From the NCBI RefSeq assembly GCF_003334305.1, contig NZ_QOWS01000012.1: a DNA stretch of 64,000 nt. The stretch is one strand, 5' to 3'. This document shows positions 24,073-37,613 of this stretch, piece by piece; position 1 is the stretch's first letter, and each line of letters starts with the position of its first letter. Below the pieces are notes generated by a model, which made no database searches, had not been told where the DNA came from, and saw nothing but the letters and a program-made list of their open reading frames with translations. This DNA is from Escherichia coli. GTDB lineage: Bacteria; Pseudomonadota; Gammaproteobacteria; Enterobacterales; Enterobacteriaceae. The translations under genes and the position numbers were made by a program.

Positions 24073-24942
24073 TTATTTTATTGGGCACAGTTTGTTACGA
24101 TCTGGAAATAGTGTTGCCAGCGAACCAGCCAGAGTTTTCCAGTCCGTAGCCATTTTTTCTGCTTGTGCAGTTGTTATTACTGCACCTTGTTGTTTAATAA
24201 GCTCATCCTCCACTCTGGTATAGTGAATAATGGTAAAATCCGTAGAGGACCATTTATCCTTAGAGAACATCTTCGTCATCGCATGAATGTTTGCTTGCCC
24301 GTCATCGATAAAAACAATCGCGTCATATTTGTTCCCCATTTTATCCAGCATATAATCGAGAATTACGCCTTTATCTTGCCCGGAAGAAAAAAATACCCCC
24401 TGGCTGTACAGCCATGACCGTTTGAGTTTCCCTTTTTCAAAGGGTGGCAAAGTATCCTCTTTCTTCCTGAGTGCGGAAGACGAAAAATCAATGCCGTTTC
24501 GCTTTAATTCCCGCAATGTCGGAAAGAGAGTATCCGGTGCACGGGATGTCAGAGCAAAAGCGGTATGCTTTTGTTGCCACTGTTTTAACATTGTCGGTAA
24601 CTGTGGCTCGGTAAGCTGCATAGGGCTAAGTTCGTAAAGCATACTGATTGTATTTTCATACAGGCAGGGAACTTTTTGCGAGTCATCCGGCTTTAAGGGC
24701 AATTTATCGGTTTACCATTGATACCAGATATCACCGCCAATGCGTGTGCCACTCGTTAATAACGTATTATCAATGTCAAAAACCAATAATATCTTATCGG
24801 ATGGATAGAGAGTTTCCTTTTCGGTGATAATTTTACTGACCGCACTATATTCGCCAGTAACTATATTTTTTACCTGTGCGTAAGATAAAGCTGGCAGAGC
24901 AGAGAGTATCATCCAGAGAATGATTTTAAATTTATTATTCAT
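24073..24942 (-). pseudogene. Secreted HAD-superfamily phosphatase interrupted by one in-frame TAA (24712-24714)
   Basis: ORF 24712-24942 carries signal peptide plus HAD motif I DIDNT; ORF 24073-24702 continues in the same frame with motif IV FIDDGQ; the two are separated only by the stop. Confidence 0.65.
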
Positions 24943-24955
24943 TTTTTATTCCAGA

Positions 24956-25690
24956 TTAGAAAGTATAAGTCAGACCCCAGCGCCAGCGGATTTGGCGATT
25001 ACTTGATGTTTTATCCACACCTTTATAATCCGCAATACTCATATAGGGTATCCACGATCCCATTTTGTACCCTACTTTAAATGATGCGGTATAGTTTTTA
25101 TGGCCATCATTCCAGGTTAAATAACCATTATTGTAATAGACCAGGTTTAACTGATATTGGAAGTTGGTTTTTTGTGGTCGATAGTCGATCCACACATCGT
25201 AACGGCGGTTATTACGATCATCGTTGCCATAACCTTTGGATTTATCGGTAGCTTTATCCATGTCATAACGAAAACGACCCGAAACTTTCCATTCTTTGCT
25301 GAAATCATAACCCGCAGAAAGACCATATTCGTAAGTTGACCAATATTGCGTGGTATCAAGCCAGAACATGGGTTCTAACCAGAATTTTTTGTCATCCAGC
25401 GGCTTAAAGCGGTAAACAACAGATAATCCTGTTCCGTTATTGCCAAATTGTGAGGGGTCCCACTTATCTTTATCACCTTCATCGGTGTTATAGCGTAATT
25501 CTCCCATCAAACCGATACCATTACTAAAAAATGTACCAAATTCAACGCGGTCCGCGTGGGTGCGAGTATCATCAAGATACTCATGACGATAATCAATAAA
25601 TCCATGCGGCTGTTCTGCACAGACTAGTGTAGGTGACAGGCAGGATAACATTGTTATTCCTGCAAGTGATATTTTAAGATAAGAATTCAT
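24956..25690 (-). CDS. KdgM/NanC-family small outer membrane porin (tentative)
   Basis: 244 aa; signal peptide; alternating aromatic/hydrophilic beta-strand pattern; C-terminal ...WGLTYTF. Confidence 0.6.
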   Translation of the reverse strand: MNSYLKISLAGITMLSCLSPTLVCAEQPHGFIDYRHEYLDDTRTHADRVEFGTFFSNGIGLMGELRYNTDEGDKDKWDPSQFGNNGTGLSVVYRFKPLDDKKFWLEPMFWLDTTQYWSTYEYGLSAGYDFSKEWKVSGRFRYDMDKATDKSKGYGNDDRNNRRYDVWIDYRPQKTNFQYQLNLVYYNNGYLTWNDGHKNYTASFKVGYKMGSWIPYMSIADYKGVDKTSSNRQIRWRWGLTYTF

Positions 25691-25785: not shown

Positions 25786-26910
25786 TTAAATTTTAAGTTT
25801 GTTTTCCTTATCAATGAATAGATAAAATTTCGTCTGTTGATGGGGCTGGAAATTATTATCAGATACAAATATTAACGATGTATGCCCATCAATCAGAGGA
25901 CCGAAGGTTACCCCTTCAATACAATCCGCAGAGGAAGTGTAATCAGCAAAATCAATTAATAATTTTTTACTGACGGGTTGTAACGTGGATTTATTGGACC
26001 AATCTTGCAGACTGTCAATATCCTTGATATCGCTGGCAGCAGTTAAATCGACCATATAAACTCTGACAGAGTAATCCCAGTCATTGAACCCAGCACTGAC
26101 GTTTCTGCCGGAACGTTCGATGACCAACAATTGGTGATCATTCAGCGCCAGGACCTCGGATACGCCATTATCATTAATACCGAACTTACTCACTTGCGGA
26201 ACAGGATCAGTAATATAGAGATATTCATGCAATTGCTTTGAAGGTCGACCGTCTGCATCTATAGAAAATTGCAGTAAGCGTGATGTACCTGAATTTATTG
26301 GACTTGCAATAGGCCCATCCTGTTTAAGGCTGCTTTCAACGGCGATAAAAAGTGATTTTCCATCTGGTGTAACTGTCAGGCCCTCCCAGGCGTTGCCGCT
26401 GCGAATACCATTGCTGCTCTCTTTGTCAGAACTAATATTAAATCGAGCAGGAAATAAAGACGTAAAATCTTTCTCCATTACGCCATCGAGAGTGCTCAGA
26501 CGCAGTGGAGCACCTAACTCCGAACTCCATAGTAATGACTTACCATTGTGTGTCAGGGCCAGACCTTCGGCATCCACCGTATTGGTCACGAAAGGCTGCT
26601 GTTTTGCATCAAGCAGTGGACGCTGGTTGAGAAAATTCACTTGCTCAATGCCCCTGGATGATACCTGTATTTTTAGTGTATAAAGACTGGCATCTCCTTC
26701 TTTATTATTGTTTCTGCTATCGTTAATAGCATAGAAAATATTTTTTTTTGCATCAAATGTGATGGCTGATAGCCCCGCGATTGTAACATTGTTCTGTTTT
26801 TCTCCCGTCCGGAAGTTGAACTCACCAGCATAATGAAGAAAACTGTTTGCCTGCGCTGTTGTGCATAACAGCGGTAATGCCAGAAAAATAGCGGCATGTC
26901 TTATTTTCAT
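25786..26910 (-). CDS. Secreted protein, probably beta-propeller; phytase-like/esterase family assignment tentative
   Basis: 374 aa; signal peptide MKIRHAAIFLALPLLCTTAQA; repeated EGL..T.DGKSL-type segments. Confidence 0.55.
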   Translation of the reverse strand: MKIRHAAIFLALPLLCTTAQANSFLHYAGEFNFRTGEKQNNVTIAGLSAITFDAKKNIFYAINDSRNNNKEGDASLYTLKIQVSSRGIEQVNFLNQRPLLDAKQQPFVTNTVDAEGLALTHNGKSLLWSSELGAPLRLSTLDGVMEKDFTSLFPARFNISSDKESSNGIRSGNAWEGLTVTPDGKSLFIAVESSLKQDGPIASPINSGTSRLLQFSIDADGRPSKQLHEYLYITDPVPQVSKFGINDNGVSEVLALNDHQLLVIERSGRNVSAGFNDWDYSVRVYMVDLTAASDIKDIDSLQDWSNKSTLQPVSKKLLIDFADYTSSADCIEGVTFGPLIDGHTSLIFVSDNNFQPHQQTKFYLFIDKENKLKI

Positions 26911-26939: not shown

Positions 26940-27854
26940 TTAGTCGTGTTGTGAAAGAAAAAGATTAACTTCCGATGGTGTCGCCAGATGACCTCTGGCA
27001 CCTAATGCAGTAATATTTATTGCTGCAGTGGCAGAAGCAAATTTTAGTGCTTCAATTAAGGGCATGTTTTTTATTAAGCTATAAACAAATGCACCATTAA
27101 AAGTATCTCCAGCGCCAGTGGTATCAATAATGGGAATTGTATAGCTACCTATTTTTACTTGCTCATTGCCTTTGACTGCAATTACTCCCCTAACATCCAG
27201 CGTAACCACGACAGCCTCAAGTTGATACTCGTCTTGTATATCATGCAGAAGTGTAAAATCTGGCTCTGCTGCATAGCCACGAATAAAACCGTCATAATTA
27301 AATATCGCAATATCAGCAAGGTGTAAAATTCTGGCAAGGTGTTCAGGTGTTGCAATGATATGAGGCTCAATATCAACGACAACTTTTGTCATCTGGCTAC
27401 GGGAATATTCGGCCAGCATACGAAATTTCTCGATATCTGCTGGCATCGTATAATAATAACGGCTTTGCGCAATTGCCTGCAGGGCTTTTTCTTTATCCCA
27501 CTCATGATCACTACCAGGCGAGTAAACCAACGTTTTTTCACCTAATTCATCAATAAAGATAATCGCGGTATTGGCAATCAATTCCGGAATTACCTGAACG
27601 AAATCACAATTTACATGATATTTTTTAAATCCATCAAGAATGATCGAGGCTGAATGATCATTGCCCACACATGAAACAGATACCACATTGAGACCCAGTT
27701 GTCCCATCGCACAGGCACTGTTGGCGACTGTGCCGCCAGCTTGTTCACCCAGACGTGTCCCGACCACTTTACCGCCACGAGTGGGGAGTGACGGGATAGA
27801 TAAAAAAATATCTATATTTCCACTGCCTAAAGCGGCGACATCAAATTTCTTCAT
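26940..27854 (-). CDS. PfkB-family carbohydrate kinase
   Basis: Starts MKKFDVAALGSGNIDIF at ATG 27854 with gggaga SD; C-terminal PfkB signature DTTGAGDTFNGAF. Confidence 0.8.
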   Translation of the reverse strand: MKKFDVAALGSGNIDIFLSIPSLPTRGGKVVGTRLGEQAGGTVANSACAMGQLGLNVVSVSCVGNDHSASIILDGFKKYHVNCDFVQVIPELIANTAIIFIDELGEKTLVYSPGSDHEWDKEKALQAIAQSRYYYTMPADIEKFRMLAEYSRSQMTKVVVDIEPHIIATPEHLARILHLADIAIFNYDGFIRGYAAEPDFTLLHDIQDEYQLEAVVVTLDVRGVIAVKGNEQVKIGSYTIPIIDTTGAGDTFNGAFVYSLIKNMPLIEALKFASATAAINITALGARGHLATPSEVNLFLSQHD

Positions 27855-27858
27855 AGTC

Positions 27859-28857
27859 TTATTTCTCCCTATGGCTAACGCGTTGCCCGCCTGCGTCGAC
27901 ATAATCACAACTTAAATGCCAGCACATTTCATATAACCACTGCATGACCAGAAATAAATTGTTGGACTCACTGGCATCAGGTATAAAACTGATTAATTCT
28001 GCTGTCGCTCCCTGTTCAACAATTGCTTTTTGGGTTGCAATGTAAAATGGGTACTCGCGGGATGTAGCTGGCAGTAAAAAATAATGCTGACCGACACCAG
28101 CCTGATGTAAGCGTAATGAATGATAAAATTCTTCCAGTGGAAAGGCTGTCGCACGAATCTGTGGGCCGCAAGAAAGTAAATTGCTCCCCGATATTGCTAG
28201 TCCCCAACTTAAGCCACTCCCCAGAAACGTTATCTCTTTTTGTTGGTAAAAATGGCGCTTCTTTTGCTGCCAGTGCTGATTAATCTGGCTAAATTTCCCT
28301 TCTAAATCCTCTTCAATTTGCAGTGGTGTTAAGCCTGGACATAAGTTTTGCGCTAAGCGCAGGAGGGTATAAAGTGTGACGCTACTACTTTGCGTTGGAA
28401 TACCCTGCTTATTCGCCCATGTATAGAGCATGTTTTCTGTTATTGCGCAAAATGGTGTTCCAGGGCAATTCGTCACACCCAGCACTTGCGCGTTTGAGCA
28501 TACTGCGTGGCTAAGGGCGTCAACGGTCAGTGATGGTCTGCCACTTGCGCTGAGAATAATGATCAACGTTTCTTTCTGATAACGGGTTAAATCAGTCTGA
28601 AGAAAATCCCACGTTTGCAATGCGGAACAAAACAGATGTGTGTATTTCCCCAGCCAGGCGGCGGCACATAGTGCCACCGTCCAGGAGTCGCCCGATCCCA
28701 CTATACAGACGCGTTCAACAGCACGTTTATCGAGCTGAACAGATGAAAAACATTCACCCCAGATAGCTGCCAAATGGCGTAGCGCTGCCGCCGTTGCATT
28801 TATTTCCTCACGAGTTTGCGCTAATGGCATAACAGGAGCACGGGCTGGCATGTTCAT
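27859..28857 (-). CDS. Double SIS-domain sugar-phosphate isomerase/deglycase-like protein (FrlB/AgaS-like)
   Basis: 332 aa; two SIS-like halves (VGSGDS..., ILSASG...; FLGSGLSWG...); start ATG overlaps upstream stop (TAATG); 4 nt before kinase start. Confidence 0.7.
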   Translation of the reverse strand: MNMPARAPVMPLAQTREEINATAAALRHLAAIWGECFSSVQLDKRAVERVCIVGSGDSWTVALCAAAWLGKYTHLFCSALQTWDFLQTDLTRYQKETLIIILSASGRPSLTVDALSHAVCSNAQVLGVTNCPGTPFCAITENMLYTWANKQGIPTQSSSVTLYTLLRLAQNLCPGLTPLQIEEDLEGKFSQINQHWQQKKRHFYQQKEITFLGSGLSWGLAISGSNLLSCGPQIRATAFPLEEFYHSLRLHQAGVGQHYFLLPATSREYPFYIATQKAIVEQGATAELISFIPDASESNNLFLVMQWLYEMCWHLSCDYVDAGGQRVSHREK

Positions 28858-29933
28858 TATTTCTCCTGTGCCTGTACTGCAAGCAATGTCAGACCCGATG
28901 CGATCGCTTCAACATCGAAATCTTTATTATTTACGGCGCGGAAAAAGGCATATTTATCTTCAGGGAGCGCATCAAAACCGCGCCATGCCCCTGCAATTGC
29001 GCCTGCCATCGTAGCGATGCTATCGGTGTCATTGCCAATATTGGCGCAGGCATGGATGGTTTCCCAGGGTTCTCCTTTGCAGTACAGCAATAGACCGATT
29101 GCCGCAGGAATGGATTCATGGGCGGCAACAGAGTTACCAACCAAACCTTCCATTTCTCGCAGACAAGACTCCAGATCATTGGCACGTCTGGCGATGTCCG
29201 CTGCAAGTTGGATGCGCATGGCGATAGATGGCCCTGCTACACATCGTGCATATTGTTTGGCCAGGCGTTCGCCGTAATTCGCTCCCCAGATTGCGGCATC
29301 CAGTAATGATGTGAGCGAGGCTTCTGGTAACATAGCCTGCGATGTCGCTGCAGCGATGGCGCAAGCGCTGGCAATCGCAATATTGGTGTCATGTGAAGGT
29401 AGGCAAGTTATTAACGCCAGGCGACACGCTTTTTCTTTCTTGCCAGGCCAGATCAATCCTGCCGGGGCTACACGCATTCCTGCGCCATTCGTGGTGCCGA
29501 CATTGGGGGCCTGACGAGAAGATGTTCCAATACGCCCAATGGTGTTTGTTGGTCTACCTTCTTTTAGTGCCTTGACGATTTGTTCTGTTGTGGGGCCTTT
29601 ATAATTTGCGTAGGGCTGCATATCGGCCCAACGCAGAAGACAAGCTAACCAGTCATTATTGGTGAAGTTATCAAATCCAGCCTCAATTAACCCTTCTGAA
29701 AACACATACATTTGGCTGGAATCGTCGGTGATAAGTCCTGCAACACCATTTAATGAGCCAGCAAAGGTATCGGCAGGAGGAGAAACAAAGGCATTTAAAA
29801 AACCTCCCCATTGAGTTTTTATTTCATCAATGCTGTAGAGTTCAGTCGCTGCGCCTAATGCATCGCCCATACCTGCGCAGGCTAAAGAACCTAATATTTT
29901 GTTATAAATTACGGCTTGTTCTATTTTGTTCAC
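28857..29933 (-). CDS. ADP-ribosylglycohydrolase-family protein
   Basis: 358 aa; N-terminal GSLACAGMGDALGAATE and C-terminal IGNDTDSIATMAGAIAGA typical of the family. Confidence 0.7.
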   Translation of the reverse strand: MNKIEQAVIYNKILGSLACAGMGDALGAATELYSIDEIKTQWGGFLNAFVSPPADTFAGSLNGVAGLITDDSSQMYVFSEGLIEAGFDNFTNNDWLACLLRWADMQPYANYKGPTTEQIVKALKEGRPTNTIGRIGTSSRQAPNVGTTNGAGMRVAPAGLIWPGKKEKACRLALITCLPSHDTNIAIASACAIAAATSQAMLPEASLTSLLDAAIWGANYGERLAKQYARCVAGPSIAMRIQLAADIARRANDLESCLREMEGLVGNSVAAHESIPAAIGLLLYCKGEPWETIHACANIGNDTDSIATMAGAIAGAWRGFDALPEDKYAFFRAVNNKDFDVEAIASGLTLLAVQAQEK

Positions 29934-29946
29934 AATATTCTCTCTG

Positions 29947-30699
29947 TTACACGCTAAAACTGTCTTTTGTAATTCGTGCTTTGTAGGAGTACCGACTTGC
30001 GGGATAAACCATCTCTACATACTCCATTGGTTTACGTTCCACGGATAACGTGACGCGGGTACAACTTAATACGACGTCATCGGCAGTCAGTTCCAGTAAT
30101 TGACGCTCAAGGGGCGAGGGAAGCCGGGCAGAGATAATCTCCGTTGCTTCTAAAGGTTTAATAGCGAGTTTTTCTTCCAGTAAAATATAGAGCGAACCCG
30201 TCGCCAGCAGCTCTTCCAGAGTTATTTCTTGTCCGTCATTTAACGCAAGCCATGATGTCTGAATACCCAGCGGCGTACTTCCCATATAGCGAATGCGTTT
30301 TATACAGAAAACGGTATGGACATGGATATCAAGTTCGAGATTTTTTCTGATAATATCACTGAGAGGAATATAACCTATTTCAAGAATATTCTGTGCCGGT
30401 ACGCCACCACGAGCCTTAATGTCATCAGTAAAACTATGTAATAAATGATTTTCCCGACTGCGAGCCGGTAATGTAAATGTTCCTTGCCCGTGGACACTAT
30501 GCAGGTATCCGCGTTGTTTCAAACTTTCTATTGCTTTCCGAATTGTTGTTCTGCTGCTTAAAAAATGTTCAGCCAGTTCTCTTTCTGTTGGTATAGCTTT
30601 GCCTTCTTTCCATTCACCGTTATCAATTTTTTTCTTTATTTCATCAAAAATTTCACGATGCTTTAGCTGACCTTTACTGGCTTTATAAATTCTTATCAT
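29947..30699 (-). CDS. GntR/HutC-family transcriptional regulator
   Basis: 250 aa; N-terminal winged-HTH (PTERELAEHFLSSRTTIRKAIESL) and UTRA-like C-terminal domain; first gene of the minus-strand operon. Confidence 0.8.
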   Translation of the reverse strand: MIRIYKASKGQLKHREIFDEIKKKIDNGEWKEGKAIPTERELAEHFLSSRTTIRKAIESLKQRGYLHSVHGQGTFTLPARSRENHLLHSFTDDIKARGGVPAQNILEIGYIPLSDIIRKNLELDIHVHTVFCIKRIRYMGSTPLGIQTSWLALNDGQEITLEELLATGSLYILLEEKLAIKPLEATEIISARLPSPLERQLLELTADDVVLSCTRVTLSVERKPMEYVEMVYPASRYSYKARITKDSFSV

Positions 30700-30985: not shown

Positions 30986-32317
30986 ATGAAACTGACAATA
31001 AATGAAAAGATAGGTTTTGGTGCCGGTGATATGGCCATTGCGATAGTAATGATGTCTTTAGCCATGATCATCACTTATTTTTACACGGATGTATTTGGTC
31101 TGAAACCCGTCGACTTAGGTATTCTGTTATTTTCTGTACGTATTCTTGATGCTGTGATTGATCCAGTTGTGGGAACAATGACAGACATAACGAATACACG
31201 TTGGGGAAAATATCGGCCATGGTTGCTTTTTATGTCAATACCGTTTGGGATAAGCATTTGGTTGATGTTCACCACACCTGATACCGATTATTCAGTTAAG
31301 CTTTTATGGGCCTGGGCTACCTATGTGTTACTTACCTTGACCTATACGTTAATCGCTATTCCTTATGTTTCATTAATCAGCGTTATCACGGATGATCCAC
31401 AAGAGAGATTGAGCGCCAATGGTTATCGTTTTGTTATGACAAAAATTGCCATGTTCGCCGTAACAATTATTGTTCCTTTATCTGCAATGTATCTTGGGAA
31501 GAATAACGTACAACTGGGTTATCAAATAGCAATGGGGACAATGGGTATTCTGGCAACGTGTTTATGCCTGTATTGTTTTTTTAGCGTGAGAGAGCGCATC
31601 TACCATCCAAAACCCAGTCTCGGTATGGCCGCGCAGTTTCGGTTACTGATCAAAAATGATCAATGGCTCATTTTGGGCGCTGTAATTGCGATCATTATGT
31701 TTGGCGGGATTATTCGTAACTCTGTCGCTGCATATTATGCAAAATATTACCTGAGTGGTGGGGATGCTTTAATTTCACCGTTTTTAACTTCAGGCGTGAT
31801 CGCCTCAGTTCTGGCTATGATCGCTTGCACCTGGCTTACTCGTCTCTATGACAAAATAAAAATATTTCGTTATACCCAATTACTGGCGTTCGTGGTGGGT
31901 GGTGCGATGTATTTCGTGCAACCAAATTCTATAGTGCTAGCTTTTACATTTTATATTGTGGTGACTTTCCTGACGGATATCCAGCTTCCCATTTATTGGG
32001 CATCCATTGCTGAGTCCGTGGATTACGGTGAAATGAAAACGGGGCAACGTGTTTCTGGCCTGGCATTTGGCGGGATTCTCTTTTTCCAAAAGTTCGGTAT
32101 GGGGCTGGCAGGGGGCTTTATCGGAATCGCTTTAGCCTATCTGGATTATCAACCAGGCGTAGAACAAACACCACAGGCGCTGTGGGGGATCTGCCTGTTA
32201 ATGACGATCATTCCCGCGATACTTAACCTGCTTACCGGACTCATCATGAGATTTTATCTGATTAATAATGAATATTACGAACAGATAAAAGCACGGTTAC
32301 AAACGGCGGAAGAGTGA
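30986..32317 (+). CDS. GPH-family (MelB/UidB-like) glycoside:cation symporter
   Basis: ~443 aa, ~12 hydrophobic helices; divergent from the GntR operon; GTG at 30977 is an alternative start. Confidence 0.75.
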   Translation: MKLTINEKIGFGAGDMAIAIVMMSLAMIITYFYTDVFGLKPVDLGILLFSVRILDAVIDPVVGTMTDITNTRWGKYRPWLLFMSIPFGISIWLMFTTPDTDYSVKLLWAWATYVLLTLTYTLIAIPYVSLISVITDDPQERLSANGYRFVMTKIAMFAVTIIVPLSAMYLGKNNVQLGYQIAMGTMGILATCLCLYCFFSVRERIYHPKPSLGMAAQFRLLIKNDQWLILGAVIAIIMFGGIIRNSVAAYYAKYYLSGGDALISPFLTSGVIASVLAMIACTWLTRLYDKIKIFRYTQLLAFVVGGAMYFVQPNSIVLAFTFYIVVTFLTDIQLPIYWASIAESVDYGEMKTGQRVSGLAFGGILFFQKFGMGLAGGFIGIALAYLDYQPGVEQTPQALWGICLLMTIIPAILNLLTGLIMRFYLINNEYYEQIKARLQTAEE

Positions 32318-37068: not shown

Positions 37069-37613
37069 TGGGGAATCTTTACCGGAGTGTGAGCCAAATC
37101 ACTCGCGATAAGTTTGAGCGAACAATGCCACAGGCGTATTGTTGTTGGGCTTATAATTTCTCCGGTAAGGAATACCATGTATACGCGAAATTTATTATCC
37201 GGTGCGCCGTAAGCCGTCTCGGGGGTATCCATGAGCAAGCCGCACTTATGGCAGGAGGCGCGGGGCACTGGTGGAGACACAGCTAAACTGGGCTGAACCG
37301 TATACTTACAGTCGACTACTTTGATGCTTTAGGCTTCCCTGGACTCGCATAACCTCAACTTCTCGAATCGCCCGGAGCGGACCCCCATGCCGAGTGGTGT
37401 GGCATGGGCGCAACCTTGTGCTGCCCTCTATGCCGATCAAGTCTACAGCAAAGAGTTGTATATCAAGGCACATTGATGCCTTTATCGCCGTCGGAGCACG
37501 TCCGGCGGCGCTATTCACGCTGATCTCCTGTGACTCGACGCGGCAGATAATGTAGTATCTCCGGCAATATTGCCCCTTTGAAGGCTGGCGAATAAGTTGA
37601 GGAATCAGAATTA

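Follow-up and report, generated by a model that had tools for sequence, protein, structure and literature searches.

Class C acid phosphatases are lipoproteins, and the class B and class C enzymes share a motif IV signature of the form GD-x3-4-D. Judged by predicted fold, the class C enzymes are the nearest described counterparts of the product of a gene that is broken in a 64,000-nucleotide stretch of Escherichia coli DNA (hereafter the window). The gene belongs to Pfam DUF2608, a HAD-superfamily family of which the window copy is a truncated null allele. It is the last of eight genes in an accessory island between parE and ygiN, and the cytoplasmic half of this island presumably resembles the yegTUV/yegW-type clusters of E. 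coli. Those clusters encode an MFS nucleoside-type transporter, an ADP-ribosylglycohydrolase-family protein, a PfkB kinase, and a GntR regulator, families that the island shares. Unlike them, the island adds SIS, phytase-like, KdgM, and DUF2608 genes. As a broken gene, the locus differs in nothing of substance from the strain-private pseudogenes that NCBI PGAP places in its 'internal stop' class. A literature search returned no paper on DUF2608, on CP028767, or on the combined domain names of the island.

Over 24,001 bases, aligned in one piece, the window region matches the genome of E. coli A7 (NZ_CP028767.1), a strain from orangutan faeces in the USA, with 100% identity. Translated straight through, the minus strand of positions 24073-24942 is one frame of 289 codons, interrupted once, by a stop at codon 77 (Table 1). 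ORF 24712-24942 encodes 76 aa, beginning with the leader MNNKFKIILWMILSALPALSYA and continuing with ...LLVFDIDNTLL...GGDIWYQW. ORF 24073-24702 is in frame with it (24942 - 24702 = 240, which is divisible by 3), and the premature stop between the two is a TAA in the context tgg TAA acc. Restoring Gln77 gives a protein whose residues 35-275 match Pfam DUF2608 (PF11019), covering model positions 8-238 of 244, with E = 5.8e-60. The shared frame and the DUF2608 match of the restored protein show that the two minus-strand ORFs are halves of one gene and no chance juxtaposition. The first-pass annotation had put the leader and DIDNT in ORF 24712-24942 and motifs II-IV in ORF 24073-24702, both in one frame and split solely by the TAA at 24712-24714; all of its coordinates and motif positions are correct, and retranslation finds no second internal stop. 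The broken gene is already on record, as RefSeq lists AOY58_RS19435 of strain A7 as a pseudogene for a "DUF2608 domain-containing protein" with the remark 'internal stop'. The annotation is thereby tidied: the two ORFs make up a single broken gene, and they are neither a new gene pair nor evidence on the fate of the island.

Table 1. Features of the broken DUF2608 gene, its island neighbours, and independent assemblies that span the premature stop. Positions are those of the window.
Feature	Position	Strand	Description
Whole DUF2608/HAD phosphatase pseudogene	24073-24942	-	289 codons plus normal stop, one internal stop
Premature TAA at codon 77, from CAA (Gln)	24712-24714	-	G>A at + strand position 24714
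Sec-type signal peptide, residues 1-22	24877-24942	-	MNNKFKIILWMILSALPALSYA, no lipobox cysteine; read from the sequence
HAD motif I, DIDNT (D56 nucleophile, D58)	24763-24777	-	D56, I57, D58, N59, and T60 invariant
Family-specific block GGDIWYQW, residues 69-76	24715-24738	-	directly upstream of the Q77 stop; from the alignment
HAD motif II region, ALTSR	24541-24555	-	S133 and R134 invariant; downstream of the stop; from the alignment
HAD motif III, K191-G192	24367-24372	-	invariant, K191 at 24370-24372; downstream of the stop; from the alignment
HAD motif IV, FIDDGQAN	24289-24312	-	D213, D214, and N218 invariant; downstream of the stop; from the alignment
KdgM-family outer-membrane porin	24956-25690	-	intact, upstream neighbour; RefSeq WP_001317336.1
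Phytase-like esterase with signal peptide	25786-26910	-	intact; WP_000702013.1, identical in relatives; PF13449 in homologous loci
PfkB kinase	26940-27854	-	intact; accession as in relatives
SIS protein	27859-28857	-	intact; accession as in relatives
ADP-ribosylglycohydrolase-family protein	28857-29933	-	intact; accession as in relatives
GntR regulator	29947-30699	-	intact; accession as in relatives
MFS transporter, divergent	30986-32317	+	intact, last island gene before ygiN; WP_000778880.1
Logan assembly SRR10357279	14712-34942		20,231 bases compared, 100% identity, TAA present
Logan assembly SRR3951615	20144-25260		5,117 bases compared, 100% identity, TAA present
NCBI draft GCA_002476345.1	14073-34642		20,570 bases compared, 100% identity, TAA present

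Homologues of the DUF2608 protein number at least 225 at E <= 1e-5. They are mostly gammaproteobacterial and include proteins from marine Alteromonas, Vibrio, and Paraglaciecola. All homologues examined have an N-terminal hydrophobic leader. Across the 21 family members that were aligned, the residues of the four HAD motifs do not vary (DxDxT at residues 56-60, S133 with R134, K191, and D213-D214), and neither do C93 and C286, two cysteines compatible with a disulfide in the periplasm. Built from this alignment, a confident AlphaFold model (pLDDT 88.4, pTM 0.84) has the Rossmann-like alpha/beta core of the HAD superfamily. In the model DIDNT 56-60 follows a strand at residues 51-55, and residues 71-77 form a helix just after this motif I strand. 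The first-pass annotation had described a secreted HAD-superfamily protein, a description borne out by the Pfam assignment, the four invariant motifs, and a predicted fold near that of the class C acid phosphatases. The intact 289-aa protein would most likely be a periplasmic Mg2+-dependent phosphomonoesterase with Asp56 as its nucleophile.

The DUF2608 protein is similar to the class C enzymes in fold, with 13-17% sequence identity to those from Bacillus anthracis (2i33), Pasteurella multocida (3pct), and Sphingobium (7cle). It is not a class C member by sequence: PF03767, the class C family, gave E = 1.6 over residues 32-64. The leader, MNNKFKIILWMILSALPALSYA followed by Q, has no lipobox cysteine, the feature that marks the class C lipoproteins, and is of the signal-peptidase-I type. 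Its motif IV reads DD-x3-N, unlike the class B/C signature, and compared with class C the family has an extra invariant GGDIWYQWQ block and the two invariant cysteines. Class B AphA (1z5g) is a weaker structural match, differs in size, and has no significant sequence or Pfam match to the protein. No sequence relative was found in the PDB at E <= 1. The NCBIfam models for HAD subfamilies (IIIC, IA) scored below their curated cutoffs, TIGR01681 with 23.8 against 35.75 bits and TIGR01509 with 20.8 against 29.4; an NCBIfam search of two neighbouring proteins gave no match.

To determine which codon is ancestral and how common the stop is, as the first-pass annotation had suggested, orthologues were aligned and alleles compared among strains with the island. 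Codon 77 is CAA in the intact 289-aa orthologues WP_001060171.1 and WP_001060173.1, in an alignment that includes strains 317 and KS-NP019. Gln77 is invariant across the 21 family members, which come from Escherichia, Klebsiella, Leclercia, Vibrio, Alteromonas, Paraglaciecola, and other genera. It closes the invariant block D71-I-W-Y-Q-W-Q77, before which G69 is invariant and G70 nearly so. A search of the 407 complete E. coli genomes in which the site is present for the 61-mer around the TAA gave an exact match in A7 alone. All six close relatives (NCTC9088, A28, DETEC-E601, H15, ECOR29, and NCTC9113) have a G at + strand position 24714, so the A in strain A7 is derived. The nearest relatives of A7 differ from it by about 1 SNP per 10 kb and lack the TAA. 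In all eight non-A7 complete genomes inspected the gene is intact, as read directly from the codon or from an intact annotated product. The gene of A7 is thus a pseudogene in which an in-frame stop truncates the product and the sense codon CAA is ancestral. The nonsense mutation is recent, as had been proposed, with CAA>TAA in 1 of 407 complete genomes and in none of the nearest relatives.

Of 5,426 complete E. coli genomes, 408 carry the island. Apart from the DUF2608 product, the seven proteins that it encodes in A7 share their accessions with NCTC9088, A28, and ECOR29. The families also travel together outside E. coli: a Klebsiella oxytoca locus encodes ADP_ribosyl_GH, SIS, PfkB, Phytase-like, GntR, A_deaminase, KdgM, and DUF2608 proteins, and by Pfam KdgM adjoins DUF2608 in Klebsiella too. 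The K. oxytoca version has a different gene order and an added adenosine-deaminase-family gene. A promoter and terminator scan around the DUF2608 gene gave nothing above the shuffled background.

These gene families suggest a possible pathway. A phosphorylated compound would enter through the adjacent KdgM porin and be processed in the periplasm by the phytase-like esterase and the DUF2608 phosphatase, with dephosphorylation by the latter preceding uptake by the MFS transporter. The ADP-ribosylglycohydrolase-family enzyme, the PfkB kinase, and the SIS protein would then metabolise the imported product under GntR control. In the A7 lineage, one coding-strand C>T transition changed the Gln77 codon from CAA to TAA. 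A Dcm methylation hotspot was considered as the cause and rejected, since the mutated C, read from the sequence, is outside any CCWGG site. Translation ends after 76 residues, or about 54 once the signal peptide is cleaved. The truncated product keeps motif I alone and loses motifs II-IV, the cap, and both conserved cysteines. Restart products, for example from M101, the start chosen by gene callers, would be without the export signal and the nucleophile. With a 76-residue fragment that has motif I alone and restart products that lack the leader and the Asp nucleophiles, the allele is a null for one presumed periplasmic step. As no gene of the string follows the DUF2608 gene, which is convergent with parE, no polar effect on other island genes is expected.

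We consider it highly probable that Q77* is a real, recent mutation of the island phosphatase confined to the A7 lineage, giving a null allele whose loss is tolerated or neutral and is no dismantling of the island. The stop is best read as one of a handful of young, unselected private mutations. A7 is then a natural null mutant and a possible control for work on the substrate of the module. The context is more useful than the stop itself: DUF2608 is a widely distributed exported HAD-fold family that travels with a KdgM, phytase-like, kinase, SIS, and ADP-ribosylglycohydrolase set in Escherichia and Klebsiella.

It is unlikely that loss of the phosphatase is adaptive, with the gene counter-selected in some niches or hosts and Q77* one of several convergent knock-outs. 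If it were, the gene would be a small example of such loss within an otherwise conserved, uncharacterised periplasmic catabolic module. Independent disruptions do occur elsewhere and speak for this reading. In the lineage of SRR22715083, W73* (TGG>TGA) lies four codons before the A7 stop (L038:9701-10570; 12 further places are similar), and 11 contigs encode the resulting 72-aa product. GCA_902827835.1 has an IS junction with an rve transposase at window position 24690, about codon 84 (L040:849-909, with 7 similar places), and GCA_900482505.1 has a further junction at 24650, about codon 97 (L041:1-119). The look-up that revealed these extra disruptions used the 189-aa fragment, which gene callers emit just when the N-terminal third is broken. 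As the look-up detects only breaks upstream of Met101, the clustering of the disruptions is an ascertainment effect and argues against convergence.

The frequencies and substitution patterns argue the same way. The exact intact protein occurs in 24,585 blocks of the collection compared to 50 for the C-terminal fragment (about 0.2%), Q77* has a single carrier among 407 complete genomes and W73* none, and the gene is intact in every one of the non-A7 complete genomes inspected. Between the alleles of A7 and strain 317, seven codon differences are synonymous and two nonsynonymous. The DUF2608 gene is under long-term purifying selection between E. coli alleles, in which synonymous changes dominate, and its catalytic residues do not vary from genus to genus. 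Unrelated genes of A7, core genes nearby among them, have private lesions that are just as damaging. The hint of counter-selection in the first-pass annotation is therefore unsupported by the allele counts and by these lesions, and we retain the reading of Q77* as a tolerated loss.

Decay of the whole island in A7, with the stop as the first visible step in losing an unused pathway, has a very low probability in our estimate. The island is accessory, as its presence in 408 of the 5,426 complete genomes indicates, and one island-less genome retains a remnant of it. This genome, MB06173, keeps 64 bases of the 3' end of the DUF2608 gene beside parE (window 24073-24136), a scar of island loss or of partial deletion. 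In A7, however, the stop is the sole private change within the island, and NCTC9088, A28, ECOR29, and others have the remaining seven proteins in identical form. Neither of the other two pseudogenes in the window lies in the island; both belong to the core genome. The suggestion made from the sequence alone that the island is decaying thus found no support, as the remaining island proteins share their accessions with relatives and core genes have lesions as well.

We also examined the other private mutations of A7. Compared with NCTC9088 and A28, A7 has eight private SNPs in the 64-kb window (positions 9039, 18312, 24714, 33012, 35776, 36718, 38441, and 46950), seven of them G:C>A:T. Five of the eight alter a protein: one is the nonsense change Q77* and four are missense (usher G824V, tolC A369V, qseB R72C, and ygiV G45R). 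The three synonymous SNPs are in mdaB, parC, and dkgA. Measured against six strains, the six SNPs and the duplication within 24000-48000 are derived in A7. Over 114 kb there are about 13 private point changes, mostly G:C>A:T, and the stop is one of them. That A7 is a hypermutator or was mutagenised was suggested by the 24 kb compared first, where all six private SNPs were G:C>A:T; it was rejected on the adjacent 50 kb, in which the spectrum is more mixed and A7 has five private SNPs against four and three in the two relatives. The terminal branch of A7, about twice the length of those of its relatives, looks unselected, with the AT-biased spectrum that is normal for young mutations.

Both core-genome pseudogenes are frameshifted. 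The fimbrial chaperone gene yqiH (window 8241-8989) has a T8>T7 homopolymer deletion at 8616, which A7 has in common with its sister isolate GCA_016671585.1. Seen in both SRR10357279 and GCA_016671585.1, the deletion is real and predates the tolC SNP; the sister isolate has the usher SNP of A7 as well but lacks the one in tolC. The radical-SAM gene ygiQ (42440-44697) has a perfect 38-bp tandem duplication at 43371-43408, edged by the 8-bp direct repeat CGCGCATT and private to A7 among seven strains.

It is extremely improbable that sequencing or assembly produced a false TAA where the strain truly has CAA. An error would account for the presence of the TAA in just one complete genome, and the yqiH frameshift in the same assembly is a change typical of long-read errors. 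Substitution errors are rare in a high-coverage consensus. Against an error, the TAA is found beyond this one assembly, in two Logan assemblies and one NCBI draft, with flanks that are 100% identical and with no branch at the site; two of the three derive from separate SRA runs. Separate genes of 76 aa and 189 aa are called on the contigs of all three. The SRR10357279 contig also has the A7-specific tolC and mdaB SNPs. Its assembly reproduces the T7 homopolymer of yqiH, and its contigs break inside the 38-bp ygiQ duplication, as expected for a repeat that long. The SRR10357279 contigs thus indicate that the reference assembly is accurate at all three gene-breaking lesions. The sequencing error that the first-pass annotation had offered as an alternative is accordingly rejected. 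The three matching assemblies may stem from the reference culture or its DNA, so that they exclude a consensus error without thereby showing that the mutation occurs in the wild. An origin of the mutation in a laboratory stock rather than in the host is possible. Two other matches in the look-up of the 76-aa product (L024 and L026) were discarded as evidence for the stop: their contigs end at codon 76, and the next two bases of L024 mismatch TA.

A bypass of the stop by readthrough, suppression, or recoding, or a natural arrangement of two genes, has next to no probability, as the full-length homologues listed are single proteins of 285-315 aa, all 21 of those aligned run on past codon 77 with none naturally ending there, the split into 76 aa and 189 aa is confined to A7-identical sequences, no suppressor tRNA was found in that the window has no tRNA gene, and UAA is not known to code for selenocysteine or pyrrolysine.

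Further observations concern genes outside the island. The R45 allele of ygiV (36718) is also on 21 contigs, and it was set aside as a marker of A7 because it occurs in lineages without the island. The accession of the qseB R72C allele (35776) is old and low-numbered. These two changes are about 1 kb apart and may represent a short recombination import, not new mutations. A look-up of the V55 allele of ygiB showed it to be common (320 blocks) and did not return the sister isolate GCA_016671585.1. Between ygiV and parC, where K-12 has ygiS and the mqsRA toxin-antitoxin genes, these genes appear to be absent in the A7 lineage, and the gap in A7 and its relatives is about 545 bp (window 37069-37613).
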